This document shows positions 9,438 to 34,872 of a stretch of DNA of 64,000 nt, piece after piece. Under the pieces are notes generated by a model that saw only the letters and a list, made by a program, of their open reading frames with translations, ran no database searches and was not told the DNA's origin. The position numbers and the translations under genes are program-made. Where the stretch lies: the NCBI GenBank assembly GCA_034433775.1, contig DAOUAI010000032.1:206-64205 (forward strand), given 5' to 3'. How positions within the stretch are numbered: position 1 is the first letter of the stretch; each line of letters opens with the position of its first letter. This DNA is from Dehalococcoidia bacterium. Its GTDB lineage: Bacteria > Chloroflexota > Dehalococcoidia > GIF9 > UBA5629.

Positions 9438-9992
9438 ATGAAGTGTCCCTATTGCGGTGATTCAGAGAGCAAGGTGATTGATTCCAGAGATGTAGGTGAT
9501 GGTATAAGGCGCCGCCGGCAATGTCTTCGTTGTCAGGCTCGATTCACCACATACGAGCAACCACAGCTACGCAACCTCTTCGTAATTAAAAAGGATGGCC
9601 GACGTGAGGAATTCAATCGTGATAAACTGCTTACCGGCGTCCGCAAAGCTTGCGAGAAGCGCCCACTACCCACAGGAAAAATCGACAAGCTGGTCGACGA
9701 CATTGAAGCTGAACTATACCGCCTCGGAAAAACAGAGATCCCTAGCTCCCTGATAGGAGACATGGTGATGGAAAGGTTGCATAACCTAGACCATATAGCC
9801 TATATTCGCTTTGCCAGTGTTTATCGCGAGTTTGCTGATATAGCCACACTAAAACAGGCAGTCGACACCTTGGTAGATACCAGGGCAAGAAGACCACCAG
9901 CTGGTCAATTGCCTTTATTACCGGAGGAAGAGTTAAAGTTTTCAGGGCACCGTCAACGCAGGCGAAGGCAAAATGATCAACCGTCAAAGTAA
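9438..9992 (+). CDS. nrdR: transcriptional repressor NrdR (zinc ribbon plus ATP-cone) with basic C-terminal tail
   Basis: MKCPYCGDSESKVIDSRD...RRRRQCLRCQARFTTYE zinc ribbon then ATP-cone; ATG 9438 preceded by AGGGGG; stop overlaps nrdJ start. Confidence 0.85.
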   Translation: MKCPYCGDSESKVIDSRDVGDGIRRRRQCLRCQARFTTYEQPQLRNLFVIKKDGRREEFNRDKLLTGVRKACEKRPLPTGKIDKLVDDIEAELYRLGKTEIPSSLIGDMVMERLHNLDHIAYIRFASVYREFADIATLKQAVDTLVDTRARRPPAGQLPLLPEEELKFSGHRQRRRRQNDQPSK

Positions 9993-12501
9993 GTTAAGCC
10001 CACAAGCTGCAACTAACCAAAACCGCATAGCCCGTGCTATTTTTGCAGCCGCGGAGGCTATGGGGATTACAGACAGGAAACTGCTGGAAGAGCTTACCGA
10101 TCAAGTTATACAAAGGCTAGAACCGAGACCTACTTTGCCAGGGATGGAGGATCTAGTGTCAAAACAGAGAAAACAAAGCCCCTCACACGCACAAATTAGA
10201 GATGCAGTCAAACAAGTCTTAGCAGGGAAAAAACAACAGACAACAGAGTCCCCACCCAGACTACTTGTCTCACAAGCACCCCCCGAGGCAGAAACAGGAT
10301 TGCACCTTTCTCAGAACGCATTGACTGTGCTTGAAAAAAGATACTTGAAAAGAGATAACCAAGGACAAGTTATCGAGACTCCCGAAGAAATGTTTCGCAG
10401 AGTGGCAAGACATATCGCCTCTGCGGAACTCAATTACGATCCTAAAGCCGATGTCAGCTTTTGGGAAGAGAAGTTTTACCAGCTTATGACCTCTTTGGAA
10501 TTCTTACCTAACTCCCCAACCCTTATGAACGCCGGTAGAGAACTCGGACAACTGTCTGCCTGTTTCGTCATTCCCGTCGATGATTCAATGGAATCCATAT
10601 TTGATGCTGTAAAATATACTGCTTTGATCCATAAAAGTGGTGGCGGCACCGGATTCTCCTTTTCCCGCTTGAGACCTAAAAATGACAGGGTGGGATCGAC
10701 TGGGGGCATCGCCAGCGGTCCAGTTTCTTTCATGCGAGCTTTTGACACGGCGACCGATGTTATTAAACAGGGGGGCATGCGTCGGGGGGCTAATATGGCT
10801 ATCTTAAACGTCGACCACCCCGATATTCTGGATTTCATTTTTGCCAAAGAAGACCCTAAAGCATTAACAAACTTTAACCTTTCAGTAGCCGTGACAGATA
10901 GCTTTATGCAAGCAGTGGAAAACGGAAAGGACTATGACCTGATAAATCCCCGAACCGGTGAGGCCACTGGCAAACTGAACGCTCAAGAAGTGTTTAGAAA
11001 GATTGCCGAAATGGCATGGCGGACCGGAGACCCTGGCATAGTCTTCATCGACACTATAAACAGGTACAACCCCACCCCTCATTTAGGAAGGATAGAAAGC
11101 ACCAACCCGTGCGGCGAACAGCCGCTGTTACCGTTTGAGTCCTGCAATCTCGGTTCTATAAACCTTTCTAAGATGGTCAAATACGAAAATGGTAATCCAG
11201 AGATTGACTTCGTTAAGCTGGGCGAGGTTATTAGACTCGGAGTACGCTTCCTCGACAATGTTATTGACGTCAACGAATTTCCATTACCTCAGATAGAAAG
11301 AATGACTAAGTCCACCAGAAAGATCGGACTCGGCGTAATGGGATTCGCTGATATGCTAATCAAGCTCTGTACCCCTTACAACTCTGAGGAGGCACTGCAA
11401 ATAGCAGAGAGACTCATGCGCTACATATCGGAAGAGGCAACCAAAGAATCTGTAAAACTGGGAATAGAACGGGGCGTGTTCCCTGCATTCAAGGGCAGCA
11501 TTTATGACACAGGCAATGGAATAAGACCGAGAAATGCCTCACGGACCACCATCGCCCCCACCGGTACGCTCAGCATAATTGCTAACTGTTCTAGTGGCAT
11601 TGAGCCACTTTTCGCACTCAGCTATACTCGTCATATCCTCGATGGCGCGGAACTCATCGAGGTTAACCCACATTTCGAAGCAATAGCTAAAAAAGAAGGC
11701 TTTTATTCACAGGAATTTATGGAGGGGCTGGCTAAAGGGAAACGGCTTAAGGATTTCGAAGGTATCCCCGGCTGGGTAAAAGAGGTTTTTGTCACCGCCC
11801 ATGATATTACCCCAGAATGGCACGTAAAGATGCAGGCAGCTTTCCAAAAATACACTGATAGTGCTGTCTCCAAGACAGTTAACTTGCCCCACGAGGCAAC
11901 GGTTGAAGATGTGGCAAAAGTGTTCCTGCTCGCTCACAAACTCGGTCTAAAAGGGATCACGATTTACCGCGACCGCAGTCGTGAAAGCCAGGTGCTGACA
12001 ACCGGTGATATTAAAGAACCTGCTTCCACAACACTGCTAAAACCAAGACATCGCCCTAAAGTTACTAAGGGGATCACTGAACGAGTGACGACAGGCTGTG
12101 GATACATATATGTTACGGTTAATTTCGATGAAAAGGGGATCTGTGAAGTATTTTCCAGCCTTGGCAAAGCAGGCGGCTGTGCGTCAGCACAACTAGAAGC
12201 TACCAGCAGGCTCATCTCCTTAGCCTTAAGATCGGGCATTGATACCGCTTCGATCACAAAACACCTCCGTGGTATCCGCTGTCCATCCGTTGCTTGGGAA
12301 GAAGGACGTGCTATCCTTTCATGTGCTGATGCTATCGCTAGTGTACTGGAGAAATATGTAAAAGACACAGGAACCGGTACTACTGACGATCAAGAAACGA
12401 CTAAGAACTGGGCAGGACAGTGTCCAGAGTGTGGGAATATCCTAATTTATCAAGAAGGTTGCCATATCTGTCCTAGCTGCGGCTACACTAAGTGCGGTTA
12501 G
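9973..12501 (+). CDS. nrdJ: adenosylcobalamin-dependent (class II) ribonucleotide reductase
   Basis: NPCGEQ active-site motif, thiyl-radical region, C-terminal CxxC...CxxC zinc ribbon; about 95-aa N-terminal region upstream of the canonical LTVLEKRYL start, so the true start may be downstream. Confidence 0.9.
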   Translation: MINRQSKLSPQAATNQNRIARAIFAAAEAMGITDRKLLEELTDQVIQRLEPRPTLPGMEDLVSKQRKQSPSHAQIRDAVKQVLAGKKQQTTESPPRLLVSQAPPEAETGLHLSQNALTVLEKRYLKRDNQGQVIETPEEMFRRVARHIASAELNYDPKADVSFWEEKFYQLMTSLEFLPNSPTLMNAGRELGQLSACFVIPVDDSMESIFDAVKYTALIHKSGGGTGFSFSRLRPKNDRVGSTGGIASGPVSFMRAFDTATDVIKQGGMRRGANMAILNVDHPDILDFIFAKEDPKALTNFNLSVAVTDSFMQAVENGKDYDLINPRTGEATGKLNAQEVFRKIAEMAWRTGDPGIVFIDTINRYNPTPHLGRIESTNPCGEQPLLPFESCNLGSINLSKMVKYENGNPEIDFVKLGEVIRLGVRFLDNVIDVNEFPLPQIERMTKSTRKIGLGVMGFADMLIKLCTPYNSEEALQIAERLMRYISEEATKESVKLGIERGVFPAFKGSIYDTGNGIRPRNASRTTIAPTGTLSIIANCSSGIEPLFALSYTRHILDGAELIEVNPHFEAIAKKEGFYSQEFMEGLAKGKRLKDFEGIPGWVKEVFVTAHDITPEWHVKMQAAFQKYTDSAVSKTVNLPHEATVEDVAKVFLLAHKLGLKGITIYRDRSRESQVLTTGDIKEPASTTLLKPRHRPKVTKGITERVTTGCGYIYVTVNFDEKGICEVFSSLGKAGGCASAQLEATSRLISLALRSGIDTASITKHLRGIRCPSVAWEEGRAILSCADAIASVLEKYVKDTGTGTTDDQETTKNWAGQCPECGNILIYQEGCHICPSCGYTKCG

Positions 12502-16452: not shown

Positions 16453-18261
16453 TTACAAATACTCCTTTATCTTTGCGGCCAACTTTCGGGGTATTCCTTT
16501 TGTCGAGGTAAGCTCCTCTACTGAAGCCGCCATTATCCGTTCCAATGAGCCAAACCTACGAAGTAAAGCCTTCTTGCGCTTTGGTCCCACACCCGGAATA
16601 GCATCGAGCAATGAGGTCATAGCGTCCCTTTGCCGCAATTTCCGGTGATACCCTAGGGCAAAACGGTGCGCTTCATCCCTCACTCTTTGAAGTAGATGCA
16701 AGGCTGCTGAAGTCCTTGGTATTTCAATCGGTGCCGGGTTGTTTGGTACAAACAAGTCCTCGTTTTCTTTAGCCAAACTAACAACAGGGATATGCTCAAT
16801 TTCAAGCTCTTTCATTACTTCTAAAGCTGCATTTAGATGCCCCCTGCCACCATCGATAAGAACAAGGTCAGGGGTCACCGACCACGTAGCTCCACCCACT
16901 AAGTAGCGCTTGAAACGTCTTGTTAGCATCTCCCGTATCATGGCATAATCATCGATGCAATCCATCACAATCTTGAAACGCCGATAGTGAGCTGGCTTTG
17001 CAAATCCCCTTTCAAAAACTACCATGCCACCTACCGCCGATCTACCCCGGATATTAGACACATCATAACCTTCTATTCTGATAGGGAGACTAGGTAAACC
17101 AAGCCTTTCCTTCAACTCTTCTAAAACTAAAGCTGTCTGCACTGTTGTCGACTGCTTTGCTTGATACATCAGTAGCCCCTGTCGGGCATTTTCGGCAACA
17201 GTATCCATTAACTGTTTTTTAACTCCACGTTGTGGCACAATCAACTTGACGACTGCACCCCTTAAACTCATCAACCACTTAGACAGGGTCTCCGGTTCCT
17301 CGACTGGATGCTGTAACAAGATAAGAGGTGGAATAGAAGTAGCCGAGGTGTAGTACTGCTTAACAAAACTGGTCAAGATTTGTCCAGGCTCCTCGCCATA
17401 AGTGCCATCCAACAGAAAATATTCACGCCCAATGAACCTATCGTTTCTTATAAAAAACACCACCACATAAGCCAGGTCCTTCGTTTGTTCCATAGCAATA
17501 GCATCGTAATCACCCCGCACTGCAACAGCTATTTTCTGTCCTTCAATAACCTTCTCTACAGCCCGAATCTGGTCCCGCAGCATAGCAGCCCTTTCAAAAT
17601 CTAACCTCTTCGACGCTTCGCCCATCTTTTGCTTCAGCTCACGAGCTACCAGCTCTTGCCTGCCCTCCAGAAATAAGATGACTTGTTTTATGATTTCCGC
17701 ATACTGCTCCTTACTCACAGCCCCAGTACAAGGACCGAGACAACGCTTGATATGATACTCAAGACATGGTCTTGTGGCATTCCCTGTAATAGCCTTACTG
17801 CAAGATCGGAAGGGGAATATCTTCTTTAGTAATCTTAGAGTCTGCCGCACCGAACTCGCGCTGGCAAACGGACCAAAATACCTGTCACCGTCCTTCACAA
17901 AACGCCGAGTGATGCGCACAGTTGGCCATTCCTCCTTCAAACCGATCTTTAGGTAAGGAAAACTCTTGTCATCCTTGAGACGGACGTTATAGCTCGGACG
18001 GTATTTCTTAATCAGGTTACACTCTAGAATAAGAGCTTCCTGTTCGGAATCAGTCACAATAGTCTCAATATCACTTATGTTGGCTACTAATTTCTGGTGC
18101 TTATCGGAAAGAGTAGAACCATGACTAAAATAAGCCTGTACACGGCTGCTCAGACACGCCGCCTTGCCCACATATATAACCTTGCCCCGGTTGTCCTTAA
18201 AAATGTAAACGCCGGGTTTCGCTGGCAATGTCTTAAGCTGCTGGACAAAAAACTTGGACAT
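16453..18261 (-). CDS. uvrC: excinuclease ABC subunit C
   Basis: N-terminal GIY-YIG (GVYIFKD...VIYVGKA), UvrBC motif, C-terminal RNase H-like and HhH domains; 602 aa. Confidence 0.9.
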   Translation of the reverse strand: MSKFFVQQLKTLPAKPGVYIFKDNRGKVIYVGKAACLSSRVQAYFSHGSTLSDKHQKLVANISDIETIVTDSEQEALILECNLIKKYRPSYNVRLKDDKSFPYLKIGLKEEWPTVRITRRFVKDGDRYFGPFASASSVRQTLRLLKKIFPFRSCSKAITGNATRPCLEYHIKRCLGPCTGAVSKEQYAEIIKQVILFLEGRQELVARELKQKMGEASKRLDFERAAMLRDQIRAVEKVIEGQKIAVAVRGDYDAIAMEQTKDLAYVVVFFIRNDRFIGREYFLLDGTYGEEPGQILTSFVKQYYTSATSIPPLILLQHPVEEPETLSKWLMSLRGAVVKLIVPQRGVKKQLMDTVAENARQGLLMYQAKQSTTVQTALVLEELKERLGLPSLPIRIEGYDVSNIRGRSAVGGMVVFERGFAKPAHYRRFKIVMDCIDDYAMIREMLTRRFKRYLVGGATWSVTPDLVLIDGGRGHLNAALEVMKELEIEHIPVVSLAKENEDLFVPNNPAPIEIPRTSAALHLLQRVRDEAHRFALGYHRKLRQRDAMTSLLDAIPGVGPKRKKALLRRFGSLERIMAASVEELTSTKGIPRKLAAKIKEYL

Positions 18262-18348
18262 AATCTTGAATTTATTGTAACACCGACCAGAAAACGAAAC
18301 AAAAGGTCAAACTATAAAACAAAAATATATAGCCCTATTTCCAACTTT

Positions 18349-19248
18349 ATGTTAAAATATAAACCGAAAATGCTTTCCGAAATTCGAGCGAGTACAGCTC
18401 CATTCCTTGATTACCTGACTAAAGAAAAGAAGTATTCCCAGAATACTCTGCTTGCCTATACAAGCGACCTGAATCAATTGATTGAATACATAGAGTCAGC
18501 AGTACCAGAAGAAGAACAAACACGGTTACGTCTGGATGCGAAGCTCCTATCTGGGTACTTGCATTCTCTTAAAGATAAGGGCTACAAACCCTCCACTGTA
18601 GCCCGTAAGGTTGCTGCCGCTAAGTCCTTCATCGCCTTCTTACTGGAGAAAGGCAAACTACAAGATGATCTGACCCCCATTTTAACCTCGCCTAAAGTAA
18701 GAAAACCTACACCAAAATCCCTGTCAGTATCAGACATCCGCAATCTGCTGGCTGAGCCAGCCAAGCTCTCTACCCCAGAAGCAAAGAGGGATAAGGCGAT
18801 GCTGGAATTACTGTACGCTACTGGCTTAAGAGCCAGTGAGCTTATGGCATTGAACGTAAAAGACATCAATCTCAAAAAGAATACTGTGAAATGCGTAAGT
18901 CGAGGTTCCAGAACAAGGGTTATACCGATTGACGATAAAGTCGCACAAGTTATCAAGGAGTATCGTGACAATGCTCGTTTACAGTTAACTAATGACGAAA
19001 AGGAAACCGCGCTGTTTGTAAATCGGCGCGGCGAACGGCTTACACGACAGGGTTTTTGGCAAATAGTACAGCATTATGCTAACAAGGCTGGGTTAGAGAT
19101 CAAGGTGACTCCACGCAATATCAGACACAGCTTCGCTATCCAAAAGCTAAAAAGTGGCGCTGACTTACAGTCAGTCAAAGAGCTTTTAGGGCATGCCCAT
19201 GTCTCCACAACCAAAGCCTATACACAAATAGAGCATATAGCGGATTAA
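18349..19248 (+). CDS. tyrosine site-specific recombinase XerC/XerD family
   Basis: R...HxxR...Y catalytic pattern (ATGLRASEL, IRHSFAI, LGHAHVSTTKAYT); ATG 18349 chosen because the upstream ORF part overlaps the uvrC start. Confidence 0.85.
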   Translation: MLKYKPKMLSEIRASTAPFLDYLTKEKKYSQNTLLAYTSDLNQLIEYIESAVPEEEQTRLRLDAKLLSGYLHSLKDKGYKPSTVARKVAAAKSFIAFLLEKGKLQDDLTPILTSPKVRKPTPKSLSVSDIRNLLAEPAKLSTPEAKRDKAMLELLYATGLRASELMALNVKDINLKKNTVKCVSRGSRTRVIPIDDKVAQVIKEYRDNARLQLTNDEKETALFVNRRGERLTRQGFWQIVQHYANKAGLEIKVTPRNIRHSFAIQKLKSGADLQSVKELLGHAHVSTTKAYTQIEHIAD

Positions 19249-20176: not shown

Positions 20177-20848
20177 TTATATCCCAGCCCTGGGGATAAA
20201 AATGGATGGAATGTTCTCCTTAGGTACCAGAGCACCTACCGGGCACACATCCACACAAGCCAAGCAAGCTTCACACTCAGCCTCTGCTAGCGGCATACCA
20301 GCAAAAGTACTGACAACAGTATCAATACCCCGGAAAGCAAAATCAAGAGTGCCCGCACCTTTTTCGTGACACACCCAGACACATTTACCACAGAGAATGC
20401 ATTTGTTCGGGTCATATATAAATAGTGGATGGCTTGAGTCTACAGGTAGATTTCTGGGTATCTGTTTCAACCTCTTGGGCTTTAGCCTTAACTTCAAGCG
20501 AGCAGCTGTATCCTGAAGCCCGCACTTTCCATTTTTGGCACAGTGAGCGCAATCTAGGTGATGATGACTAATTAGAAATTCGAAAGCAGTGCTCCGTAGT
20601 TTGTTTACCCGAGGGGTATTAAGATGTACTACCATACCATCGCTTACTGGCTCGGTACAAGATGTGACCGGAAACTGCCTGCCTTCAATTTCCACAAAGC
20701 AAAGGCGGCAGGAAGCAAAAGGTGGATTTACTCCCCTGATAGCACAAAGATTGGGAATATAGAATCCGTTATCTAGAGCTACCCAGAGGATCTTTTCGCC
20801 TTTCCTGGCTTTAATCTCAATGCCATCGATAATGCAGTTAACTAACAA
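20177..20848 (-). CDS. HoxU/NuoG-N-terminal-like iron-sulfur protein ([2Fe-2S], His-ligated [4Fe-4S], two [4Fe-4S])
   Basis: CxxxxxxxxxCxxC...C 2Fe-2S pattern, HHLDCAHCAKNGKC, CILCGKCVWVCHE, CEACLACVDVCP. Confidence 0.75.
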   Translation of the reverse strand: MLVNCIIDGIEIKARKGEKILWVALDNGFYIPNLCAIRGVNPPFASCRLCFVEIEGRQFPVTSCTEPVSDGMVVHLNTPRVNKLRSTAFEFLISHHHLDCAHCAKNGKCGLQDTAARLKLRLKPKRLKQIPRNLPVDSSHPLFIYDPNKCILCGKCVWVCHEKGAGTLDFAFRGIDTVVSTFAGMPLAEAECEACLACVDVCPVGALVPKENIPSIFIPRAGI

Positions 20849-20930: not shown

Positions 20931-21461
20931 TTACCCCTTCTTTCGCCCGTGTTTCAAAAAATTCTCTTCCATAAAATCCACCAGCTCTTCAATTGCTTTT
21001 GGAGAAAAATTTCTAACCCCGCATTCAATCGGTTTCTCCGTCACAACAGCTATCAGGTTTTTCAAATCAAAGGCATTTACCTTATCTGAATCTCTGTAGA
21101 GCTTTATTTTTGGCACCTCGCTTTGCTTGAACCCTTCAGCGAGCAGAATATCATAATCTGCTCCCAGGATTTGTGCCGCCTCACCGAGGGAAAGCTCGTG
21201 CAACACCGGCTTAATCAACACCAGTTGAGTAGAAGAGAGTATCAAAGTCGCCGCACTCCCTGCTTGAATATGCCGCCAGCTATCCTTGTGTGCCTTATCA
21301 AAGGAGGGCTTAGCTAAAGCATGTTTTATGGTCCCCACCTTGTAACCGCGAGACTTCAACTTCACAATAAGTGACTCTATCAGCGTAGTTTTGCCTGATT
21401 TTGATGTGCCCACTATCGCAACAATCGGAGGTGTTCGTTTAACGGCTCTAGCGTTAGACAT
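20931..21461 (-). CDS. mobB: molybdopterin-guanine dinucleotide biosynthesis adapter MobB
   Basis: P-loop IVGTSKSGKTTLIE, 176 aa MobB length. Confidence 0.85.
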   Translation of the reverse strand: MSNARAVKRTPPIVAIVGTSKSGKTTLIESLIVKLKSRGYKVGTIKHALAKPSFDKAHKDSWRHIQAGSAATLILSSTQLVLIKPVLHELSLGEAAQILGADYDILLAEGFKQSEVPKIKLYRDSDKVNAFDLKNLIAVVTEKPIECGVRNFSPKAIEELVDFMEENFLKHGRKKG

Positions 21462-21921
21462 TAGAATAGCCCCAAGGTCGCCTATAAGCCTTCCTCCACG
21501 GTTCTCTTCTCAGGGAGATATAGTCTTTCACTGCTGCCTTGATCGCGCTAACTGCCAACGATGCACAATGGTAATTACCTTCTGGCAGCCCACCCAATGC
21601 CCGAGAAATGTCCTCCTCACAGATTGCCAGCACTTCAGCGATATCCTTGCCTTTGACCAGTTCGGTGGCAACACTTCCGCAAGCGACTGTAGCACCACAA
21701 CCATCTGTCCAGAATGTTACTTCCGCTACCTGTGCCCTGTCTACCTTAATCCACATCTTCATTACTTCACCACACTGGCTACAAACAACTGCAAAACCAT
21801 CAGCATCGCTGAGATCACCTAGATTCCGAGGATTCATCGCGTGGTCAACGACTCTCTCACCATACATCTCCTTCATCCTAGCCGTTATTTGCCTTTCAAG
21901 CTCATCAAATTGGTTGTCCAT
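21454..21921 (-). CDS. NifU/IscU-like Fe-S cluster scaffold protein
   Basis: NPRNLG, DGCGATVACGS and HCASLA Cys motifs typical of the U-type scaffold. Confidence 0.7.
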   Translation of the reverse strand: MDNQFDELERQITARMKEMYGERVVDHAMNPRNLGDLSDADGFAVVCSQCGEVMKMWIKVDRAQVAEVTFWTDGCGATVACGSVATELVKGKDIAEVLAICEEDISRALGGLPEGNYHCASLAVSAIKAAVKDYISLRREPWRKAYRRPWGYSNV

Positions 21922-22252: not shown

Positions 22253-23716
22253 CTACTTCCTGGAGAGCGTCCTTACTATCTTGCCGCTTCCGTCTCTGAG
22301 GTTCACTTCGAGGGGCATTTTCCCGGGAAGCGTATGTGTGGCACATGCCAGGCATGGGTCGTAAGGCCTGAAAGCCATTTCCACCATGTTTAGCAGTCCC
22401 TCTTTAACCTCAGGACCTTTCACAAACCCCATTGCGGCTTTCTTAACAGAAAGACAAATAGGAGCTGCATTATGCTGCGTAGCTACTATAAGATTGGCTC
22501 TTGTGACCAGCCCTCTATCATCGGTCTCATAATGGTGTATTAAAGTTCCCCTTGCTGCCTCAACACACCCGATACCTATCCTCTTGAGTCTTAAGTTCAT
22601 ATTCCGTATATCCTTGCTGGTTAAAAGAGGTTCATTCGCTATCCGCTGCATGTCCTCAGCAGCCTGAAGCGCTTCTATTAACCGTGCCCAGTGGAAAGCT
22701 AGGGTATGATTGCTGGGCTTGCCCCCTAACGTGTCAAACATCTCCTCATACGCTTTCTGCGCCAGAGGAGTTGCCATACCATCGGCAGCATTCAGCCGGG
22801 CAAGAGGACCAACACGATATAACGATGTCTTATCTCCCTCTATCAATCCATTCCAACCCAATTTTCTAAGGTGAGTCAATCTGATATATGTCCAGGGTTC
22901 AACCCACTCGCCAATGTAATCAACATAGTCCCTGGGGTCGAACAATGCATACTCATTTCCTTTAGTGTCTGTGACTCTAATTTTACCTTCGTAGAAATTC
23001 ACTTTTTTGTCGGCATCCACCAGTCCCATGTTATAGACATTTAGCTTATAAGCATCGTGCAAGATCAGGTCAAGGTATTTCTTTTCGCCAAGCACAGCCT
23101 CTTTGAATAGCTTAAGGGCAAATTGAGCAAACTCCACTGAATCATTTGCCGTGTCTCTAATCCATTTTCTTTCTTCCTCGGTGACACCTCTAGGTACACC
23201 ACCAGGTAACCCGCCTTCAGGATGGGGTGCCTTGCTACCGACAAGGCGAATGATATCGCGGCATCGTTTTCTTATGTCAATTACTTTTTTCCCTATATCT
23301 AACCCCACCCTGCCAATAACGCCGAGTATATTCCTTGCCGCCGGATCAGCATCTGGACCGACAACAAAGTCCGGGGCAGAGAGGAAGAAAAAGTGAATAT
23401 AGTGGTCTTCGAGCATAAACGCATTATAGTGGAGCTGCCTTACCAATTTTGCCGCCGGGGTGGGCTCAACGCTATACACATCGTCCACTGCCTTTGTAGA
23501 TGCCATATTATGGGGTGTAGGACAAACGCCACAAATATTAGGTGTTATCCTTGGCATCTCCTCCACTGGTCTACCAATGCAGAACCTTTCAAAACCTCTT
23601 AGCTCAACCACCTGCCAGTAGGCATCTTCCACGTTACCCTTGTTGTCCAAAAAAATCTCAATTTTACCGTGTCCCTCGAGCCTTGTAATCGGGTTTATAG
23701 TTATATTCTTTGCCAT
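22253..23716 (-). CDS. [NiFe] hydrogenase large subunit, group 3 (MvhA/VhuA-like)
   Basis: N-terminal Ni-binding NICGVCPTPH, C-terminal DPCLACATH followed by a cleavable extension; 487 aa. Confidence 0.9.
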   Translation of the reverse strand: MAKNITINPITRLEGHGKIEIFLDNKGNVEDAYWQVVELRGFERFCIGRPVEEMPRITPNICGVCPTPHNMASTKAVDDVYSVEPTPAAKLVRQLHYNAFMLEDHYIHFFFLSAPDFVVGPDADPAARNILGVIGRVGLDIGKKVIDIRKRCRDIIRLVGSKAPHPEGGLPGGVPRGVTEEERKWIRDTANDSVEFAQFALKLFKEAVLGEKKYLDLILHDAYKLNVYNMGLVDADKKVNFYEGKIRVTDTKGNEYALFDPRDYVDYIGEWVEPWTYIRLTHLRKLGWNGLIEGDKTSLYRVGPLARLNAADGMATPLAQKAYEEMFDTLGGKPSNHTLAFHWARLIEALQAAEDMQRIANEPLLTSKDIRNMNLRLKRIGIGCVEAARGTLIHHYETDDRGLVTRANLIVATQHNAAPICLSVKKAAMGFVKGPEVKEGLLNMVEMAFRPYDPCLACATHTLPGKMPLEVNLRDGSGKIVRTLSRK

Positions 23717-23736
23717 TTCTACTAACTCCTTACTCC

Positions 23737-24702
23737 CTATATTCTTTTGCGCACCAGCGCTGACACCGGCGCCGAGAACCGGTAGAGGTAGCCGGCAAGG
23801 TCGTCTATTTTATCCACAAGCCTCTTTACTTCCTTTTCATCATCAGCATCTAGCATAGAAGCTAATGCAGAGACAAACTTCGTCCCAGCATCTTGTACCC
23901 CTTCCACAGGACCAAAGCAACCCCTGCACGGCAAGTTTATCTTCATGCAGACCTCACCACATCCCGAACGGGTCGCTGGTCCCAGACAAAGTACCCCTTG
24001 CGCAAGAAAACATGTATCCGGGTTAGCTTCCACTTCATGAATACGCTTGACGTCCTTCAACGCAATTCGTGGAGGCTTTGTTTTGTTCCGCTCACAAGTA
24101 TCACAAAGAGCTTTGTGAGGGGCTAAGGTTGAACCTCGCGGTGGCAACTTGCCCGCCAAAACCGCGTTGACCGCACTGGCTATCAGATCAGGTGGTGGTG
24201 GACAACCTGGAAGGTAATAATCAACATCTATAATCTGATTAAGAGCATATACCTGCTCATAAAACTCAGGCAGCGTCAACTCTTTGCCATTTACCTTGGA
24301 TTTGGGCTGAGGGACATTACCTTTTGGGTTCACAACAGTGGGCGCATCACGATAAACCCAGTTAAATATATCCTCTTTAGTAGTAAAATTCGCCATTCCC
24401 GGCGTACCACCAAAACAAGCGCAAGCACCAAAAGCGAGTACTAACTGCGATTTTCGTCTTAAGAGTTCTGCTACCTCTTCATGGTCGGAATTCCTCACAT
24501 GCCCATTGATAATGCTCAAGGCTATTTCTTTGTCCTTCAGCTCCTCAATGTGGTGGTACTTAAAGTCCATAGCCACTGGCCACAGTATGATATCCACAGC
24601 CTCAGCCACCTGCAAAACTGCCTCGTTCAGGTCAACTACAGCCTCGTCACAACCACCACAACTACCCAGCCAACAGATTGCAACCTTCGGTTTATTCGCC
24701 AT
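23737..24702 (-). CDS. [NiFe] hydrogenase small subunit with C-terminal ferredoxin-like extension (MvhG-like)
   Basis: CWLGSCGGCDE proximal cluster, GACACFGG, additional C-terminal Cys clusters; 321 aa. Confidence 0.85.
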   Translation of the reverse strand: MANKPKVAICWLGSCGGCDEAVVDLNEAVLQVAEAVDIILWPVAMDFKYHHIEELKDKEIALSIINGHVRNSDHEEVAELLRRKSQLVLAFGACACFGGTPGMANFTTKEDIFNWVYRDAPTVVNPKGNVPQPKSKVNGKELTLPEFYEQVYALNQIIDVDYYLPGCPPPPDLIASAVNAVLAGKLPPRGSTLAPHKALCDTCERNKTKPPRIALKDVKRIHEVEANPDTCFLAQGVLCLGPATRSGCGEVCMKINLPCRGCFGPVEGVQDAGTKFVSALASMLDADDEKEVKRLVDKIDDLAGYLYRFSAPVSALVRKRI

Positions 24703-24718
24703 CGCTTGTTCTCCTTCC

Positions 24719-25156
24719 TTACCTTTTTGCTTTTGCAGCAGCTAATGCTCGACTCACCGGTTTGATCTTCTTTACCGGTCCCATACTGCGCAAAGTTTCA
24801 GTCATATCTTTAACATGATTAAGTATCTCTTTACCTTCGGGGTCTGAAGAGAGCACTATGCGCACCCGCTCCGTCTCGATACCGTAAGAACTCAGCAACT
24901 TTCTCAATAGATAAACTCTCTTCCGTGCCTCAAAATTACCGTCCTGATAATGGCAGTCCCCCTCAGGACAACCTAAAATAAGAACACCGTCAGCCCCGTT
25001 CTTAAATGCATCTACAATATGGGCGGCATCTATTTTGCCGCTACAAATTATAGGCACCCAGTTCTTTATTTGGGCAGCTAGCTGAGCCTCATCAGCCAAA
25101 TATCCCCAACTAAATTTGCAAGAAAAACAGACTAATTTAGGTTCGAAATTGTTCAC
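24719..25156 (-). CDS. MvhD/FlpD-like [2Fe-2S] hydrogenase delta subunit
   Basis: LVCFSC..., ICSGKIDAAHIVDAFKNGADGVLILGCPEGDCHY pattern; 145 aa. Confidence 0.8.
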   Translation of the reverse strand: MNNFEPKLVCFSCKFSWGYLADEAQLAAQIKNWVPIICSGKIDAAHIVDAFKNGADGVLILGCPEGDCHYQDGNFEARKRVYLLRKLLSSYGIETERVRIVLSSDPEGKEILNHVKDMTETLRSMGPVKKIKPVSRALAAAKAKR

Positions 25157-25183
25157 TTCTCCTCCTTACATCTTAGTTTGTAG

Positions 25184-26977
25184 TTACTGCAACGCCGCAT
25201 AAACTTTATCGATTTTCTCGTAAGTCAGGTCCTCGACCATTTTTCTGGCATCAGAAGGGCAAGCAGCTACACACATGCCACAAGACTTGCATCGGAACAT
25301 ATCAGTGGCAGAGATGATTTTGCCCTCTCTCTCCACAAGATGCGCTGACCCGTAATTACAGGAGTACACACAAATTCCACACCCGCTGCATCTATCCTCA
25401 TCCACCTGGACAGAATAAAGTGACTTCTCAAACCCAATAGATATGCAGGCTTTGCATGATACACAGGGACCACAAGTAGCGCATCTTTTCGCTTCCTCTA
25501 TAGCTTCATCGAGGGTAAGCCCTCTTTCAAACAACTGAAAATGCATCCTCTGCTCAGGCGGTATCCAGACCACCTCAGTTGGCGGCTTATAGTTGGATCT
25601 GAGCGGGATATCGAATTTCTCAAAGTCTCTTCGTCTACCCTCAGTCATATTCAGTCCCCTGAGATACCTGTGGATAGACTCAGCGGCTTCCATCCCTTCT
25701 TTCATCGCCTCAACCATGAACCCTATCCGGCGGACATCACCACCAATAAAGACGTCACGGAATTTAAGACTTTGTAAGGTGTGAGGGTCAACGGCCAGCC
25801 TGCCCCTCTCATCGAGAAGCATCTCATTCTCTAGAACAACCCGGTCAGGCCCCTGCCCTATAGTTATTATAAGAACGTCTCCATCCAGCTCTATCGTGTC
25901 CGATAAGTCAAACTTCGGATTAAATCCCTGCTCATCAAAGACACAGGTACACTTTGGAGACACAATCTTTCTGAACCTGCCTGCTTCACCAATTATCTTC
26001 TGTACACCCCGGGAATATACTATTTGAATTCCCTCTTCCCAGGCTCCCCTTATTTCCTCCTCATCGGCAGGAATACCATCGCGAGAACTTTTATCTTCGC
26101 ACTCCAAACATACCACAGTTACCTCGCCCCCAAGTCTCCTCACCGAGCGCGCAACATCAAACGCCACATTCCCACCACCAATCACAATCACCTTGCGGTA
26201 CTTAAAATAGTCGGGCTCGATATTCCCATGGCTGATCTCGTAAAGCAAAGTATGCCCGTACAACACTCCGGATAGGTCCTGCCCCTCCACTGGTTTACCA
26301 TCGAAGGTCAATATTCTGGGGTAAGGCGTCCCTTTCGCCAAAAATATTGCCTTATACCCCTGCATCCTCAATCTTTCAAAAGTAAGCTTACCTTTACCTA
26401 CCTCAGAATTAAACTTGACATCTATCCCGGCAATCCGTACCAGATTGTCAATGGTAGTCTTTAGCACGTCGTCCGGAAGACGGTAGTCAGGTATAAGCCA
26501 CAAAGCCCCACCCAGCCTGTTTGAAGCTTCAAAAATCGTCGGCTTGTACCCTCTCTTCGCCAGATAGTAGGCACACATCAGACCACCCGGCCCACCCCCC
26601 ACAATCGCCACATTTTCCTTGTCTTTGACTATGTTCAGTTCCTCCCTTTGGTTCAAGTAGTCCGTATAATAGTCTGAGAGGAACCTTTTTAACAGCCTGC
26701 GCCTTATCGCTCCACCTTTGGTCTTATAGTTGCACTCAAGTTCACACAAACCACAAATATAGCCGCAGATGTTGAAAAACGGGTTCTTTTCGTAGAGGTA
26801 ATCACCTATCTGAATTATGCCATTTTTGGCTGACTCGATATCCCTGGGCAAAAGGGAGATAAGCACATTAGTCCGCTGGATATCTTCGTTGATGGGACAT
26901 TTAATCTGACATGGGGGTAACAACTGCTTGACAGCCTCCTCCACATGCGCTCCACCAGTGGTTACTGTACGCCACAT
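25184..26977 (-). CDS. GltD/HdrA-like FAD- and NAD(P)H-binding flavoprotein with N-terminal [4Fe-4S] and C-terminal 2x[4Fe-4S] ferredoxin domain
   Basis: CGYICGLCELEC, VAIVGGGPGGLMCAYYLAKRGY dinucleotide fold, second VIVIGGGNVAFD fold, C-terminal CATCGPCVSCKAC...CSGCGICVYSC...CKSCGMCVAACP. Confidence 0.75.
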   Translation of the reverse strand: MWRTVTTGGAHVEEAVKQLLPPCQIKCPINEDIQRTNVLISLLPRDIESAKNGIIQIGDYLYEKNPFFNICGYICGLCELECNYKTKGGAIRRRLLKRFLSDYYTDYLNQREELNIVKDKENVAIVGGGPGGLMCAYYLAKRGYKPTIFEASNRLGGALWLIPDYRLPDDVLKTTIDNLVRIAGIDVKFNSEVGKGKLTFERLRMQGYKAIFLAKGTPYPRILTFDGKPVEGQDLSGVLYGHTLLYEISHGNIEPDYFKYRKVIVIGGGNVAFDVARSVRRLGGEVTVVCLECEDKSSRDGIPADEEEIRGAWEEGIQIVYSRGVQKIIGEAGRFRKIVSPKCTCVFDEQGFNPKFDLSDTIELDGDVLIITIGQGPDRVVLENEMLLDERGRLAVDPHTLQSLKFRDVFIGGDVRRIGFMVEAMKEGMEAAESIHRYLRGLNMTEGRRRDFEKFDIPLRSNYKPPTEVVWIPPEQRMHFQLFERGLTLDEAIEEAKRCATCGPCVSCKACISIGFEKSLYSVQVDEDRCSGCGICVYSCNYGSAHLVEREGKIISATDMFRCKSCGMCVAACPSDARKMVEDLTYEKIDKVYAALQ

Positions 26978-31186: not shown

Positions 31187-34100
31187 TTATTCTCCTACCT
31201 CAAGGTCGCATCTCAGGCACCTTTTAGCTTCCCTTCTGGCTTCTTCTTCTGTAAGAGGCAGTTCTATCTCTTCAAAGCTCTGCCGCCTTTTCTCTACGGG
31301 AAGCGTTGGTGCCTCTCGCCGGGGTTGTTCTTTCCATATTTCTTTAGCCACATCAATAGGCAACTCTTCAGCAATCTCAACTTTACGTTTAAGCTCGTGC
31401 AACTCCACTCTAGATGTATCTCCCCTGAGATACTTGTCTATAGCTATAGCCGCCCTCCTCCCGTCAGCAATAGCATATATTACCATGTCAGGACCCCTGA
31501 CAAAGTCACCGCCAGCGAAAATGCCAGGGACATTAGTAGCTAAAGTGTTGGAGTCGATTCGAAGTCGATCCCACTCTGTTCTTTCCAGGCGGCTATCCGG
31601 GGGCAAGAAAGAGAGGTCTGGCGCTTGCCCCACAGCAGCAATTACTGCGTCTGCCTCCACCACGAAATCAGAGCCCGGGATAGGTGCTGGCCTGCGTCTA
31701 CCGCTTGCATCGATATCTCCCAACTCCATGCGAACGCACCGCAAACCTGTGACCTTCCAGTTCTCACTCAAAATCCGCACTGGGTTGACTAAGAAGTTCA
31801 TCTTAACCCCCTCAGCCACTGCCCCCTCATATTCCACCTCGGACACTGGCATCTCCTCTCGAGTGCGGCGGTAATAGATGTTCACCTCTTCTGCCCCGAG
31901 TCTTAGCGCAGCACGTGCTGAATCTATAGCCACATTACCGCCACCGATAACAGCTACTCTCCGCTCGATCTTCGTCTGCCTACCAATTTTGACATCACGC
32001 AAAAAAGTGAGGCCATAATAAAGACCGGTCAGTCCCTCCACCTCGCCAGGAATCCCTATCCGCTGGCTTTTTTGTGCTCCTGCGGCGATAAAAACCGCAT
32101 CGTAGCCACTTTGCAGAAGGTGCCTCACACGGAAATTCTCGTTTATCGGTGTGCTATACCTGATCTCCACCCCCCGCTTTGCAATGTACTCGATTTCCTG
32201 TTCGATAACTTTACGCGGTAAGCGGAACTCCGGGATGGCTACAGCAAGCATCCCACCACCCACTGGAAGCGCTTCAAACACCGTCACACCATATCCCATC
32301 TGCGCCAAGAAATAGGCACAGCTAAGACCTGTTGGACCAGCCCCGACCACAGCCACCTTCTGAGGCTTAGTCCTGGGAAAAGGCTGAGGTGGGGGCACTT
32401 TATCGAGATTATCAAAATACCAATCGGCAGCAAATCGCTTGAGTGCCCGAATAGCCATAGGTTCATCAATATCTTTTCGCCGGCACTTGTATTCGCATGG
32501 ATGATGGCAGATTCGCCCACATATTGCTGGGAATGGGTTGCGTTCTCTGATAGTCTCCACCGCCTCCAAATACTCCCCGGCAGCAATATGAGCAATATAT
32601 TTCGGGATATTAATGCCCACCGGGCAAGTATGCTGACAAGGTGACGGAAATAACGCCTGACATACTGCAGCCGGGCACCGCTTGTCCATGATATGGGCTT
32701 CGTACTCCTCCCTGAAATGTCGCACAGTAGTCAGCACAGGATTAGGCGAAGTCTGCCCGAGTCCACAAAGTGAGCAGGAGCTTACCATCTCAGCAAGTTC
32801 TTCGATGGTGCTCAAGTCTTCCATCGTTCCCTCGCCGTTCGTTATCTTGGTCAGTAATTCTAGCATCTTAGGTATCCCTGCCCGACAGGGAGTGCACTTA
32901 CCGCACGACTCGTCTCTGGTGAACTGGAGGAAAAACTTAGCCACATCAACCATACAGCTATCTTCGTCCATTACCACCAGACCTCCAGACCCCATAATCG
33001 CGCCGAGACTGGTGATAGACTCATAGTCTACAGGTGTGTTAATATGCTGAGTAGGAATAACACCACCAGAAGGCCCCCCCATCTGCACCGCCTTAAATCT
33101 CTTGCCTTCTGGTATGCCACCGCCGATATCAAAGATTATTCTTCCCAACCTCGTCCCCAGAGGGACTTCAACCAGCCCGGTGTTGTTTATTTTTCCTACT
33201 AGACAAAGTACCTTCGTGCCCTTACTTCTTTCCGTACCCACAGCTGAAAACCAGTCTGCTCCCTTCCAGATGATTTGCGGCACGTTTGACCAGGTCTCTA
33301 CATTATTAATAGTGGTCGGCTTACCAAAAAGTCCTTTGTTCGCAGGAAACGGCGGACGCTGCCGTGGGTTGCCACGCCTACCCTCAATAGATATTAAAAG
33401 TGCTGTTTCTTCACCACAGACAAAAGCCCCCGCCCCAGGGAAAATATCAAGGTCAAATTCAAATCCTGTGCCCAGTATATTTTTCCCCAGTAACCCATGT
33501 TCTCGGGCCTGCTCAATAGCATGTCGTAACGTTTCAATAGCTAAAGGATACTCAGCTCGTATATAGGCATACCCTTGGCGCACATTACCGATAGCGTAAG
33601 CACCTATTGTCATTCCCTCGATTATGGAGTGCGGATTGCCCTCCAAAACGGCACGGTTCATATACGCCCCGGGGTCACCTTCGTCGCCGTTACATACCAC
33701 AAATTTCTCATCCCCAGGCGCGTTGCGAACAAACCCCCACTTAGTAGCTGCAGGGAATCCAGCACCACCACGCCCCCTTAAACCGGACTTCCGAACCTCA
33801 TCCAGGACTTCATCAGGGGACATTTGCGTTAATACCTTAGCCAACGCCTGGTAGCCATCCCTGGCAATATATTCCTCGATATCCATCGGGTCAATATCCT
33901 GATTATGCATTATCCTTATCTCTTGAAATCCAAAAGGGGGAGACTCAGTATCCAGCACCCATTCTGCTACCGGTGTCCCTTTGATAAGATGCTGGTCAAC
34001 AATGCGCTGCACTTTATCCTCAGAGAGGTCAGCGTAGATAAATCTCCTCTTATTTCCAGGCTCAATAACAGTAATTACAGGTTCACGCCCGCATAGTCCA

Positions 34101-34315
34101 ATGCAGCTTGCCTTTAACACAACTACATCAGACAACTTCCGAGATGCTATCTCGCGCTCGAGAGCCGCCAGTATCCGGTTTGCCCCTGAGGATATACCAC
34201 ATGTACCTAGATGCACTCTGACCTGTATCTTCTTTTCCCGCTCTGCAACTTTAGCCTGAGCCTGTTCCTTCCAGCTTGAAAGCTCTTTCACTGACGCAAG
34301 TGGCTTTACAATCAT
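31187..34315 (-). CDS. fusion of NuoF/HoxF-like NADH-binding FMN/[4Fe-4S] subunit (with N-terminal thioredoxin-like 2Fe-2S domain) and a C-terminal GltD-like NAD(P)H:FAD oxidoreductase
   Basis: GRGGAGFPAATKWGF and ESCGKCTPCR (NuoF core); extra clusters CSLCGLG, CPAAVCQALFPSPCQHTCP, CGRICHHPCEYKC; VAVVGAGPTGLSCAYFLAQMGY plus VAVIGGGNVAIDSAR dinucleotide folds; 1042 aa. Confidence 0.8.
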   Translation of the reverse strand: MIVKPLASVKELSSWKEQAQAKVAEREKKIQVRVHLGTCGISSGANRILAALEREIASRKLSDVVVLKASCIGLCGREPVITVIEPGNKRRFIYADLSEDKVQRIVDQHLIKGTPVAEWVLDTESPPFGFQEIRIMHNQDIDPMDIEEYIARDGYQALAKVLTQMSPDEVLDEVRKSGLRGRGGAGFPAATKWGFVRNAPGDEKFVVCNGDEGDPGAYMNRAVLEGNPHSIIEGMTIGAYAIGNVRQGYAYIRAEYPLAIETLRHAIEQAREHGLLGKNILGTGFEFDLDIFPGAGAFVCGEETALLISIEGRRGNPRQRPPFPANKGLFGKPTTINNVETWSNVPQIIWKGADWFSAVGTERSKGTKVLCLVGKINNTGLVEVPLGTRLGRIIFDIGGGIPEGKRFKAVQMGGPSGGVIPTQHINTPVDYESITSLGAIMGSGGLVVMDEDSCMVDVAKFFLQFTRDESCGKCTPCRAGIPKMLELLTKITNGEGTMEDLSTIEELAEMVSSCSLCGLGQTSPNPVLTTVRHFREEYEAHIMDKRCPAAVCQALFPSPCQHTCPVGINIPKYIAHIAAGEYLEAVETIRERNPFPAICGRICHHPCEYKCRRKDIDEPMAIRALKRFAADWYFDNLDKVPPPQPFPRTKPQKVAVVGAGPTGLSCAYFLAQMGYGVTVFEALPVGGGMLAVAIPEFRLPRKVIEQEIEYIAKRGVEIRYSTPINENFRVRHLLQSGYDAVFIAAGAQKSQRIGIPGEVEGLTGLYYGLTFLRDVKIGRQTKIERRVAVIGGGNVAIDSARAALRLGAEEVNIYYRRTREEMPVSEVEYEGAVAEGVKMNFLVNPVRILSENWKVTGLRCVRMELGDIDASGRRRPAPIPGSDFVVEADAVIAAVGQAPDLSFLPPDSRLERTEWDRLRIDSNTLATNVPGIFAGGDFVRGPDMVIYAIADGRRAAIAIDKYLRGDTSRVELHELKRKVEIAEELPIDVAKEIWKEQPRREAPTLPVEKRRQSFEEIELPLTEEEARREAKRCLRCDLEVGE

Positions 34316-34332: not shown

Positions 34333-34872
34333 CTAACTATAGGAATCTAGGATTTCTTTTAATTTGCTTGGCTTCACTTTTCTATGCACATCATGCCCAA
34401 TGGCTATCACCGGCGACAAACCACAGCAACCGAGACATCTGACCGTTTCCAATGAAAACTTACCATCAGGGGTAATACCCTTGGGCTCCAGACCATAGTC
34501 CTTCTTTAATGCCTTCAAAATCCTCTCGGACCCCTTAACATAGCAACTCGTCCCCGTACAGACTTGAATAACATGTTTACCCTTTGGCACAAGAGAGAAA
34601 AAGTGGTAAAAACTGACTATACCATAGACCTCACTCAAGGGCACTTTCATCTCAGCCGAGACCACTCGTAACACTTCAGGCGGTAAATAACCTACAATCC
34701 CCTGCACCTGCTGCAATACCCGTATTATAGCCCCCGCCTTCCCAGCATTTTCATCTACCACCTTAAGTATCCGCTGCAAAACCTCTCGGTTAATACCCTC
34801 CGCTGTTTTTGTTGCCGTAGCAGTACCTGTTTGCTGCACAGTTGCCCCCTTTGATATTTGAGTATGATTCAA
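34333..34872 (-). CDS. NuoE/HoxE-like thioredoxin-fold [2Fe-2S] subunit
   Basis: VCTGTSCYVKG...CLGCCGLSP 2Fe-2S ligand pattern of the 24-kDa subunit family. Confidence 0.85.
   Translation of the reverse strand: MNHTQISKGATVQQTGTATATKTAEGINREVLQRILKVVDENAGKAGAIIRVLQQVQGIVGYLPPEVLRVVSAEMKVPLSEVYGIVSFYHFFSLVPKGKHVIQVCTGTSCYVKGSERILKALKKDYGLEPKGITPDGKFSLETVRCLGCCGLSPVIAIGHDVHRKVKPSKLKEILDSYS

Follow-up and report, generated by a model that had tools for sequence, protein, structure and literature searches.

Gene Organization of the Cassette

The stretch of DNA analyzed here (64,000 nt; hereafter, the window) covers positions 206 to 64,205 of contig DAOUAI010000032.1 from a Dehalococcoidia bacterium of the phylum Chloroflexota (assembly GCA_034433775.1). 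Four genes at positions 22253–26977 of the window form a compact cassette, in which the subunits MvhD, MvhG, and MvhA of an Mvh-type [NiFe] hydrogenase are encoded directly behind an iron–sulfur flavoprotein, and which most probably encodes a H2:NAD(P)+ oxidoreductase. A preliminary description of this DNA had given the order flavoprotein (597 aa), mvhD, mvhG, and mvhA with tight spacing. The open reading frames (ORFs) were found at exactly these positions, with gaps of 27, 16, and 20 nt between successive genes. Moreover, a strong AAGGAGG-like ribosome-binding site precedes all four starts. The coordinates of the genes, of the flavoprotein regions, and of the upstream boundary are listed in Table 1. 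In the case of the promoter-like and terminator-like sites, the number of pattern matches in the sequence was not higher than that in the shuffled sequence.

Table 1. Features of the cassette, its flavoprotein, and its upstream boundary (positions in the window).
Feature	Position	Strand	Description
Flavoprotein gene	26977..25184	minus	597 aa; GltD/NfnL-like Fe–S flavoprotein with C-terminal ferredoxin domain
mvhD	25156..24719	minus	145 aa; GTG start; [2Fe–2S] adaptor subunit (FlpD)
mvhG	24702..23737	minus	321 aa; long small subunit; three [4Fe–4S] clusters
mvhA	23716..22253	minus	487 aa; [NiFe] large subunit, extended at its C-terminus for maturation by a protease
Flavoprotein residues 20–100	26678..26920	minus	Truncated GltD N-terminal Fe–S region; C23, C27, C71, C75, C78, C82, and K97, all invariant
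Flavoprotein residues 118–442	25652..26626	minus	FAD (GGGPGG) and NAD(P)H (GGGNVA) Rossmann domains
Flavoprotein residues 472–515	25433..25564	minus	Displaced N-terminal GltD segment EEAKRC499xxC502, then C505, C508, and C511
Flavoprotein residues 516–582	25232..25432	minus	2x[4Fe–4S] ferredoxin domain, HdrA C-terminal type
Terminator-like hairpin and T-run	27126–27100	minus	3' of upstream hydL; boundary of two hydrogenase operons; pattern match only
Promoter-like site TGCACA-16-TATTAT	27062–27035	minus	58 nt 5' of flavoprotein start; pattern match only

Hydrogenase Subunits and Search for Hdr Genes

The three hydrogenase subunits were matched by the Pfam families NiFeSe_Hases (MvhA, 1e-34), Oxidored_q6 (MvhG, 1e-22), and FlpD (MvhD, 2e-31), and the best NCBIfam models for the first two were VhuA and VhuG, respectively. 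MvhA carries the Ni–Fe ligand motifs RICGVCP (C62/C65) and DPCLACATH (C455/C458), and the four ligand Cys were invariant in 41 sequences. In the Protein Data Bank (PDB), MvhA scored 381 bits with HydL of A. mobile (7t2r_D), 364 bits with MvhA (5odc_F), 355 and 348 bits with Vhu and Mvh, and 310 bits with the group 3d SH. By sequence, it appears to be about equally distant from methanogen MvhA and A. mobile HydL.

MvhG was matched over its full length by MvhG of M. thermolithotrophicus (5odc_E; 230 bits, residues 6–316 against 3–293), whereas the score with the short HydS was 86 bits. The alignment includes the domain of the medial and distal clusters, and 13 Cys were invariant among the orthologues. 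Since no Tat signal motif was found on scanning MvhG, the complex is expected to be cytoplasmic. MvhD matched methanogen MvhD (5odc_D) end to end with 89 bits, and its four Cys were likewise invariant among orthologues. In its MvhA motifs, long MvhG, and MvhD, the hydrogenase part has the structural features of [NiFe] group 3c, whereas the partnership with HdrABC that defines this group appears to be missing from the cassette, as judged from the 64-kb window.

The lack of hdrB and hdrC in the window, already stated in the preliminary description, was upheld by a motif scan, Pfam scans, and tblastn. A six-frame scan of the window for the CCG cysteine pattern returned a single stretch of 86 codons, which lies in another frame inside an ATP-grasp gene (49227–49928). 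Pfam scans of 57 of the larger window ORFs, the majority of them housekeeping genes (PriA, FtsA/Z, NrdR, ribonucleotide reductase, UvrC, ribosomal proteins, EF-Tu, and RpoC), detected no CCG or Hdr domain, and tblastn with an HdrD-like protein known from related loci gave no match to the window. Similarly, no PyrK-like NfnS/NfnA gene was found in the cassette or among the Pfam-scanned window ORFs.

Architecture of the Flavoprotein

The flavoprotein had initially been described as GltD/HdrA-like. Its GltD-like character was borne out, the body of the protein being NfnL-like, while the likeness to HdrA was confined to the last ~65 residues. Pfam detected Pyr_redox_2 (5e-30), Fer4_20, and a C-terminal Fer4 dicluster. 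The top PDB sequence score was obtained with NfnI-L of P. furiosus (5jca_L, 177 bits), and the only chains spanning residues 20–574 in one alignment were the NfnL-like middle parts of Bfu-type NfnA/StnC (9bov_A, 8oh5_C). The AlphaFold model was of moderate quality, with a predicted local distance difference test score (pLDDT) of 67.8 and values below 50 in the Fe–S regions. On searching this model with Foldseek, NfnA/StnC chains (9n5u_A, 8oh5_C, 9bov_A) filled the top four places, and no HdrA was present among the top 50 matches. HdrA chains aligned only to residues ~516–593. Identities to solved relatives ranged from 26 to 32%, and by sequence the flavoprotein is best placed on a separate branch outside the characterized families HdrA, NfnL/NfnB, and Bfu NfnA/StnC, sharing parts with each of them.

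Among 38 flavoprotein orthologues, 20 Cys were invariant. The first two cysteines of the classical N-terminal motif CxxCx4Cx3CP are gone, and HMMER aligned residues 472–523 to residues 12–67 of T. maritima NfnB. The GltD module of a neighboring HydB fusion (described below) ends in the same RCxxC. As read from these alignments, the lost CxxC has been relocated behind the NAD domain by circular permutation and would complete the distal cluster there, as in StnC/NfnA. An overlooked N-terminal extension carrying the missing CxxC was rejected, because a stop codon one codon 5' of the ATG prevents the ORF from extending; M1 and W2 are moreover conserved. A redox-active disulfide at CLEC (C290/C293) was also dismissed, as these Cys were present in just 22 and 20 of the 38 orthologues.

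In the alignment, the Glu that NfnB/NfnL carry in KLERF/RLERF is replaced by Lys97 (LLKRF). This Lys was unchanged in all 38 orthologues and invariant in an alignment of 46 sequences. In Csac NfnA, cluster A7 is ligated by Cys108, Cys147, Cys151, and Lys170 (PMC11829005). On aligning the flavoprotein to 9bov_A, C27, C75, C78, and K97 mapped onto C108, C147, C151, and K170. By this correspondence, the flavin-proximal [4Fe–4S] cluster is predicted to be Lys-ligated through C27/C75/C78/K97. The FAD (flavin adenine dinucleotide) of StnC, a member of the same Bfu-type group, was experimentally shown to be non-bifurcating (PMC10482914).

C-Terminal Ferredoxin Domain and Natural Fusions with MvhD

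When the C-terminus of the flavoprotein was searched in isolation, its best PDB matches were HdrA 570–634 (9sfi_A), 5odc_A, and 7bkb_A. The score with HdrA was 46.7 bits, compared with ~25 bits for ordinary ferredoxins, and in NCBIfam the domain matched positions 568–627 of HdrA2. In the methanogen complex, electrons pass from MvhD to the flavin via the C-terminal ferredoxin domain of HdrA (PMC9012536), and the hydrogenase is anchored by both terminal regions of HdrA and by a helix of VhuD (PMC13518236). By analogy, residues 516–582 of the flavoprotein are proposed to serve as the docking and electron-entry site for MvhD.

Natural fusions were searched for in a database of 1.84 billion representative proteins. 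P0124 (729 aa, 42% identity) is one such fusion, in which the flavoprotein chain runs from its C-terminal ferredoxin domain straight into an FlpD/MvhD domain; mvhG, mvhA, and hycI come next in the gene order. A C-terminal FlpD domain was detected in 8 of 10 scanned relatives of ~650–730 aa. The same module also occurs away from hydrogenases. Of five looked-up fusions of GltD, ferredoxin, and MvhD (35–37% identity), four stand in front of a DUF5981 gene. Two of these four loci contain a methylene-tetrahydrofolate reductase (MTHFR) gene, and three lie beside genes for carbon monoxide dehydrogenase/acetyl-CoA synthase of the Wood–Ljungdahl pathway. The loci, each with a fusion of ~700 aa, are L055 (4199–8109), L058 (1416–5213), L061 (6001–9646), and L064 (293–3364). 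The C505/C508/C511 motif is missing from the DUF5981-linked fusions except P0134.

From their gene context, the DUF5981-linked fusions could possibly act as NAD(P)H-linked methylene-tetrahydrofolate reductases that use MvhD without HdrABC. No name for them was found in the literature searched. Because the same module stands beside DUF5981/MTHFR genes, its behavior is that of a portable NAD(P)H interface. By sequence, the unit of flavoprotein, ferredoxin domain, and MvhD thus looks like a pyridine-nucleotide interface for different catalytic partners, the partner in the present cassette being MvhGA.

Conservation of the Cassette across Genomes

A genome scan returned 51 loci, and 44 of them contained a flavoprotein orthologue at 63–98% identity. 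Neighboring genes were counted over the 35 loci with enough flank, unless the count is given out of 44. The closest relative of the flavoprotein, with 98% identity, was found in a Dehalococcoidia metagenome-assembled genome (MAG; locus L001). Most of the 44 loci were labeled Dehalococcoidia or Chloroflexota, with one Smithella and one uncultured deltaproteobacterium; these two loci are Syntrophales-like. The scan yielded "uncultured Dehalococcoidaceae" but no cultured strain.

The order flavoprotein, MvhD, MvhG, and MvhA was kept in all of the 44 loci whose contig reaches far enough, whereas the surrounding genes differed from locus to locus. The identities of the four proteins co-varied, with r = 0.82–0.91 (34 loci). 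The cassette is inherited as a unit and apparently has also moved as such between phyla. A chance pairing of the flavoprotein with the hydrogenase was ruled out by the conservation, the co-variation of identities, and the natural fusion.

Individual loci require separate comment. The contigs L040 ("Candidatus Methanolliviera") and L005 ("Bacteroidales") carry the cassette at 75–78% identity to the Dehalococcoidia version and are probably misbinned Dehalococcoidia. In L052, a contig of 1.35 Mb, mvhD is broken into ORFs of 43 and 83 codons (9815–10238), while the gene is intact (140 aa) in the near-identical short-read L053. The split is likely an assembly frameshift.

Nucleotide Specificity

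The second Rossmann motif of the flavoprotein, GGGNVA, is intact. In the cassette clade, the 2'-phosphate loop reads LE.EDK..[RK]DGIPAD, a conserved sequence with a five-residue acidic insertion, instead of YRRxxxEMPA. The latter is present in NfnL, StnC/NfnA, the neighboring HydB::GltD fusion (as YYRRTREEMP), and the hydrogenase-linked fusion P0124, and other relatives of the flavoprotein read CLE-SxxEMPA. In Rossmann domains, NAD is as a rule favored by an acidic residue where strand beta-2 ends, and NADP by paired arginines. By this rule, the acidic LE.ED and the lost YRR suggest NADH, and NADPH is possible in view of GxGxxA and the retained Lys296 and Arg/Lys299. As the canonical NADPH loop is missing, NADH was considered at least as likely as NADPH.

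Proposed Electron Transfer

From the gene content, the cofactor motifs, the conservation, the family relationships, and the fusion of flavoprotein and MvhD, we infer with somewhat better than even odds (a probability of roughly 0.55) that the four genes encode one soluble cytoplasmic H2:NAD(P)+ oxidoreductase, which would be linear, non-bifurcating, and probably reversible. H2 would be split at the [NiFe] site of MvhA, and the electrons would travel singly via the three [4Fe–4S] clusters of MvhG to the [2Fe–2S] cluster of MvhD. The docking site of MvhD on the flavoprotein would be the C-terminal ferredoxin domain of HdrA type. The electrons would then pass through the two clusters of this domain, perhaps through a third one on C505/C508/C511, and on to the pair of clusters in the permuted GltD region. 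The final cluster before the FAD would be the one ligated by Cys27, Cys75, Cys78, and Lys97, and the single FAD would gather two electrons and deliver a hydride to NAD(P)+. The flavin would act as a plain converter between one- and two-electron transfer, as in StnC and Bfu-type NfnA, with no bifurcation site.

The preliminary description had proposed that electrons from H2 reach a flavin through MvhD and reduce NAD(P)+ and/or ferredoxin. The route to pyridine nucleotide fits the strict conservation and the flavoprotein::MvhD fusion, whereas the bifurcating ferredoxin option was disfavored by the Lys at position 97 in place of Glu. An electron-bifurcating [NiFe] hydrogenase, in which the NfnL-like FAD and perhaps nearby clusters replace the HdrA flavin and couple H2 to both NAD(P)+ and ferredoxin, or confurcate, was considered unlikely. 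It would be in line with NfnL/NfnB, which has the same fold at 30–32% identity and bifurcates at this FAD, with MvhD supplying a [2Fe–2S] cluster as NfnS does, and with the four to five clusters of the flavoprotein, a surplus for a plain wire. The conserved Arg166, the equivalent of NfnB R201, was also listed in its favor; however, R201 is kept in the non-bifurcating StnC too, and Arg166 is therefore not discriminating. The Lys at the proximal cluster, shared with the non-bifurcating NfnA/StnC module, argues against bifurcation to ferredoxin. Moreover, there is just one flavin, which is also needed for hydride transfer; the fusion point of MvhD, behind the C-terminal ferredoxin domain, speaks for a linear chain; and the adjoining cluster already encodes a bifurcating hydrogenase of the Bfu type. 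A new class of bifurcating [NiFe] hydrogenase was regarded as more doubtful still. In such a class, the NfnL-like FAD, the Lys-ligated cluster, and the C505/C508/C511 site would together replace HdrA, and in relatives the enzyme would perhaps be switched by a phosphorylatable receiver.

Possible Additional Partners in Relatives

Eight of the 44 relatives encode an HdrD-like protein (Fer4 and 2xCCG) next to the cassette, together with EtfAB where the contig reaches. Among the 35 loci with enough flank, 9 have HdrD-like and/or Etf genes nearby. In L010 (8209–9849), L012 (7319–9319), and L037 (5825–9179), the adjoining genes encode EtfB, an EtfA fused to ferredoxin, and the HdrD-like protein. The same neighbors occur in L013, L016, L022, L038, L039, and L046, and their position and orientation vary. 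Some of the HdrD-like neighbors carry a long N-terminal extension. Given the HdrD-like CCG proteins of the eight relatives, an Hdr-type partner is possible for the wider family.

Thus, the cassette could be the input half of a larger machine, with the HdrD-like CCG protein and EtfAB, or another client of MvhD, as a further partner and the pyridine nucleotide as a second donor or acceptor. Besides the gene neighbors, a preprint had noted Chloroflexi group 3c hydrogenases adjoining Hdr/Etf genes (10.1101/2021.08.23.457424), and MvhD serves several enzymes as a shared adaptor (PMC6085437). However, the HdrD and Etf genes are absent from the 64-kb window and from most relatives, and they do not keep a constant position or orientation where they occur, so that a larger machine was judged improbable for the cassette. 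EtfAB with an HdrD-like Fe–S oxidoreductase is, moreover, known as a self-sufficient module.

In 17 of the 44 loci, genes for a histidine kinase and a single-domain response regulator were found close to the cassette, mostly directly after mvhA. The kinase is a membrane protein (6TM_PilS, HisKA, and HATPase). In P0121 (58% identity), the flavoprotein continues at its C-terminus into a receiver domain, and mvhD and mvhG follow. These arrangements are represented by L052 (12976–14784), L053 (5551–7434), and L056 (601–2775). By analogy with regulatory hydrogenases, the complex could form a signaling device for H2 or redox state with the kinase and the receiver, but this was rated very unlikely. 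Both genes are absent from the window and its four closest relatives, the FAD/NAD module is fully conserved, and the enzyme has lost none of its catalytic features. Regulatory hydrogenases lack the C-terminal extension of the large subunit and hence need no maturation protease, whereas MvhA retains this extension and maturation protease genes adjoin the cassette in 11 of the 35 loci. The kinase and receiver could just as well have a regulatory role, acting on the enzyme or on its expression, and control of the enzyme is the simpler interpretation. Their association with the cassette and the fused receiver suggest phosphorylation-dependent control of the enzyme in relatives.

Several points weigh against a linear H2:NAD(P)+ oxidoreductase. 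The flavoprotein seems to have more clusters than a bare wire needs, and both the HdrD-like gene of the eight relatives and the kinase and response regulator of the 17 loci could signal extra partners. The 2'-phosphate loop departs from the family consensus, which weakens the identification of the nucleotide and, in principle, nucleotide binding itself. Furthermore, as the AlphaFold model was only moderate (pLDDT 67.8) and gave no cluster distances, the docking site of MvhD was placed by homology alone.

Neighboring Genes in the Window

A second [NiFe] hydrogenase, of the Bfu/HydABCSL type, is encoded upstream of the cassette at 34872–27152 (minus strand). It begins with a HydC-like gene (34872..34333) and continues with HydB (34315..31187, 1042 aa). 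Residues 32–556 of HydB matched A. mobile HydB with 702 bits, and residues 558–1037 form a complete NfnL-like NADPH module, with 412 bits to residues 102–567 of Csac NfnA, the YYRRTREEMP loop, and the Lys ligand. The cluster also comprises a 664-aa NuoG/HydA-like protein with a molybdopterin-like domain, HydS (178 aa), and HydL, which scored 615 bits with 7t2r_D. By sequence, this enzyme looks like a hybrid of a bifurcating NiFe hydrogenase and NfnABC, in which the NADPH module has shifted from subunit A to subunit B. The two hydrogenases are unlikely to form one operon or complex, as the hairpin and the promoter-like site lie between them, and just 7 of 35 loci have a Bfu-type hydrogenase in the vicinity of the cassette, in some cases in inverted orientation.

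Downstream of the cassette, the minus strand encodes a NifU-like scaffold protein (21921..21454), MobB (21461..20931), and an orphan HoxU-like protein (20848..20177) of 223 aa with [2Fe–2S] and [4Fe–4S] motifs. Only L001–L004, the four closest relatives, keep this trio together with the cassette. In the archaeal MAG loci L047 (labeled Hermodarchaeota) and L048, a HoxU-like gene of 30% identity lies directly 5' of a GltD-like gene of 33% identity. Elsewhere in the window, an ORF for a XerC/D-type tyrosine recombinase (18097–19248, plus strand) overlaps the start of the divergent uvrC (16453–18261, minus strand) by ~165 nt, and the true start of the recombinase is probably further downstream.

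Comparison with Known Systems

Similar to MvhADG–HdrABC and VhuADGU–Hdr of methanogens (group 3c), the cassette comprises MvhA, a three-cluster MvhG, and a [2Fe–2S] MvhD, and the acceptor protein has an HdrA-type C-terminal ferredoxin domain. Unlike HdrA, however, the flavoprotein has neither the thioredoxin-reductase-like flavin domain nor the inserted ferredoxin domain, and the cassette has no HdrBC. The flavin module is of the GltD/NfnL-like type and includes an NAD(P) site, so that a pyridine nucleotide rather than a heterodisulfide is the predicted acceptor and bifurcation is not expected.

With the Bfu-type NfnA/StnC of the transhydrogenases NfnABC and StnABC (9bov, 9n5u, 8oh5), the flavoprotein shares the displaced CxxC and the Lys-ligated proximal cluster. 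In these proteins, the FAD is a two-/one-electron converter that feeds an Fe–S chain, as proposed for the flavoprotein. The identity is nevertheless just 26–28%, and the flavoprotein lacks the N-terminal [2Fe–2S] (Fer2_4) and Fdh/NuoG-like (Molybdopterin) domains. It also differs in the replaced YRR loop, the HdrA-type ferredoxin domain, and MvhD as a partner. BfuB (NuoF-like) and BfuC (NuoE-like) are not encoded in the cassette operon but in the separate upstream cluster behind the hairpin. In the case of the large subunit of NfnSL/NfnAB (NfnL, NfnB, SudA), the GltD-like fold is the same (30–32% identity) and a separate [2Fe–2S] protein likewise serves as partner, whereas the flavoprotein has Lys for Glu, a permuted Fe–S motif, an extra C-terminal ferredoxin domain, and a changed NADPH loop, and the cassette has no PyrK-like NfnS partner.

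The group 3d Hox/SH enzymes, the group 3b sulfhydrogenases, and NiFe-HydABCSL resemble the cassette in the predicted interconversion of H2 and NAD(P)H and in their cytoplasmic location. However, the diaphorase of the cassette would consist of a GltD-like FAD protein and MvhD, rather than of HoxFU/NuoEFG-like flavin mononucleotide subunits or HydB/HydG. In comparison with group 3d and HydABCSL, the small subunit is of the long MvhG type, not of the short HoxY/HydS type. The DUF5981/MTHFR-linked fusions belong to the same flavoprotein family (35–37%) and have the same HdrA-type ferredoxin domain with MvhD attached; there, MvhD is fused and the partner is methylene-tetrahydrofolate reductase, whereas here MvhD is separate and the partner is a hydrogenase.

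In the full-text literature (subscription literature lay outside the search), no description of a GltD/NfnL-like partner of MvhDGA was found. A 2021 review of GltD-like proteins listed none with a hydrogenase, and papers on the "Vhu" hydrogenase of Dehalococcoides mccartyi and Dehalogenimonas name just VhuA/VhuG; searches by locus tag for the latter enzyme gave no match. The nearest published idea concerns Bathyarchaeota, in which a GltD domain is inserted in HdrA next to mvhADG and a link between NADH and H2 was proposed (PMC12054007). In that case, HdrA is complete and HdrBC is present, while in the cassette HdrA is represented only by its C-terminal ferredoxin domain.

Surveys of hydrogen metabolism raise the question of which role group 3c hydrogenases play in bacteria without the methanogenic heterodisulfide. 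The locus offers a testable answer for widespread uncultured Dehalococcoidia and some Syntrophales, namely, that MvhD plugs the hydrogenase into an NAD(P)H flavoprotein. A new principle would be at hand only if bifurcation or signaling proved true. If the linear oxidoreductase is correct, the cassette would represent a third, structurally unrelated link between [NiFe] hydrogenases and pyridine nucleotides, besides the diaphorases of Hox/SH and the sulfhydrogenases. The arrangement also suggests that MvhD and the HdrA-type ferredoxin domain may be a portable docking interface that is independent of HdrA. The annotation "MvhADG" as a sign of Hdr-linked bifurcation would need revision in the metagenomes of these lineages.

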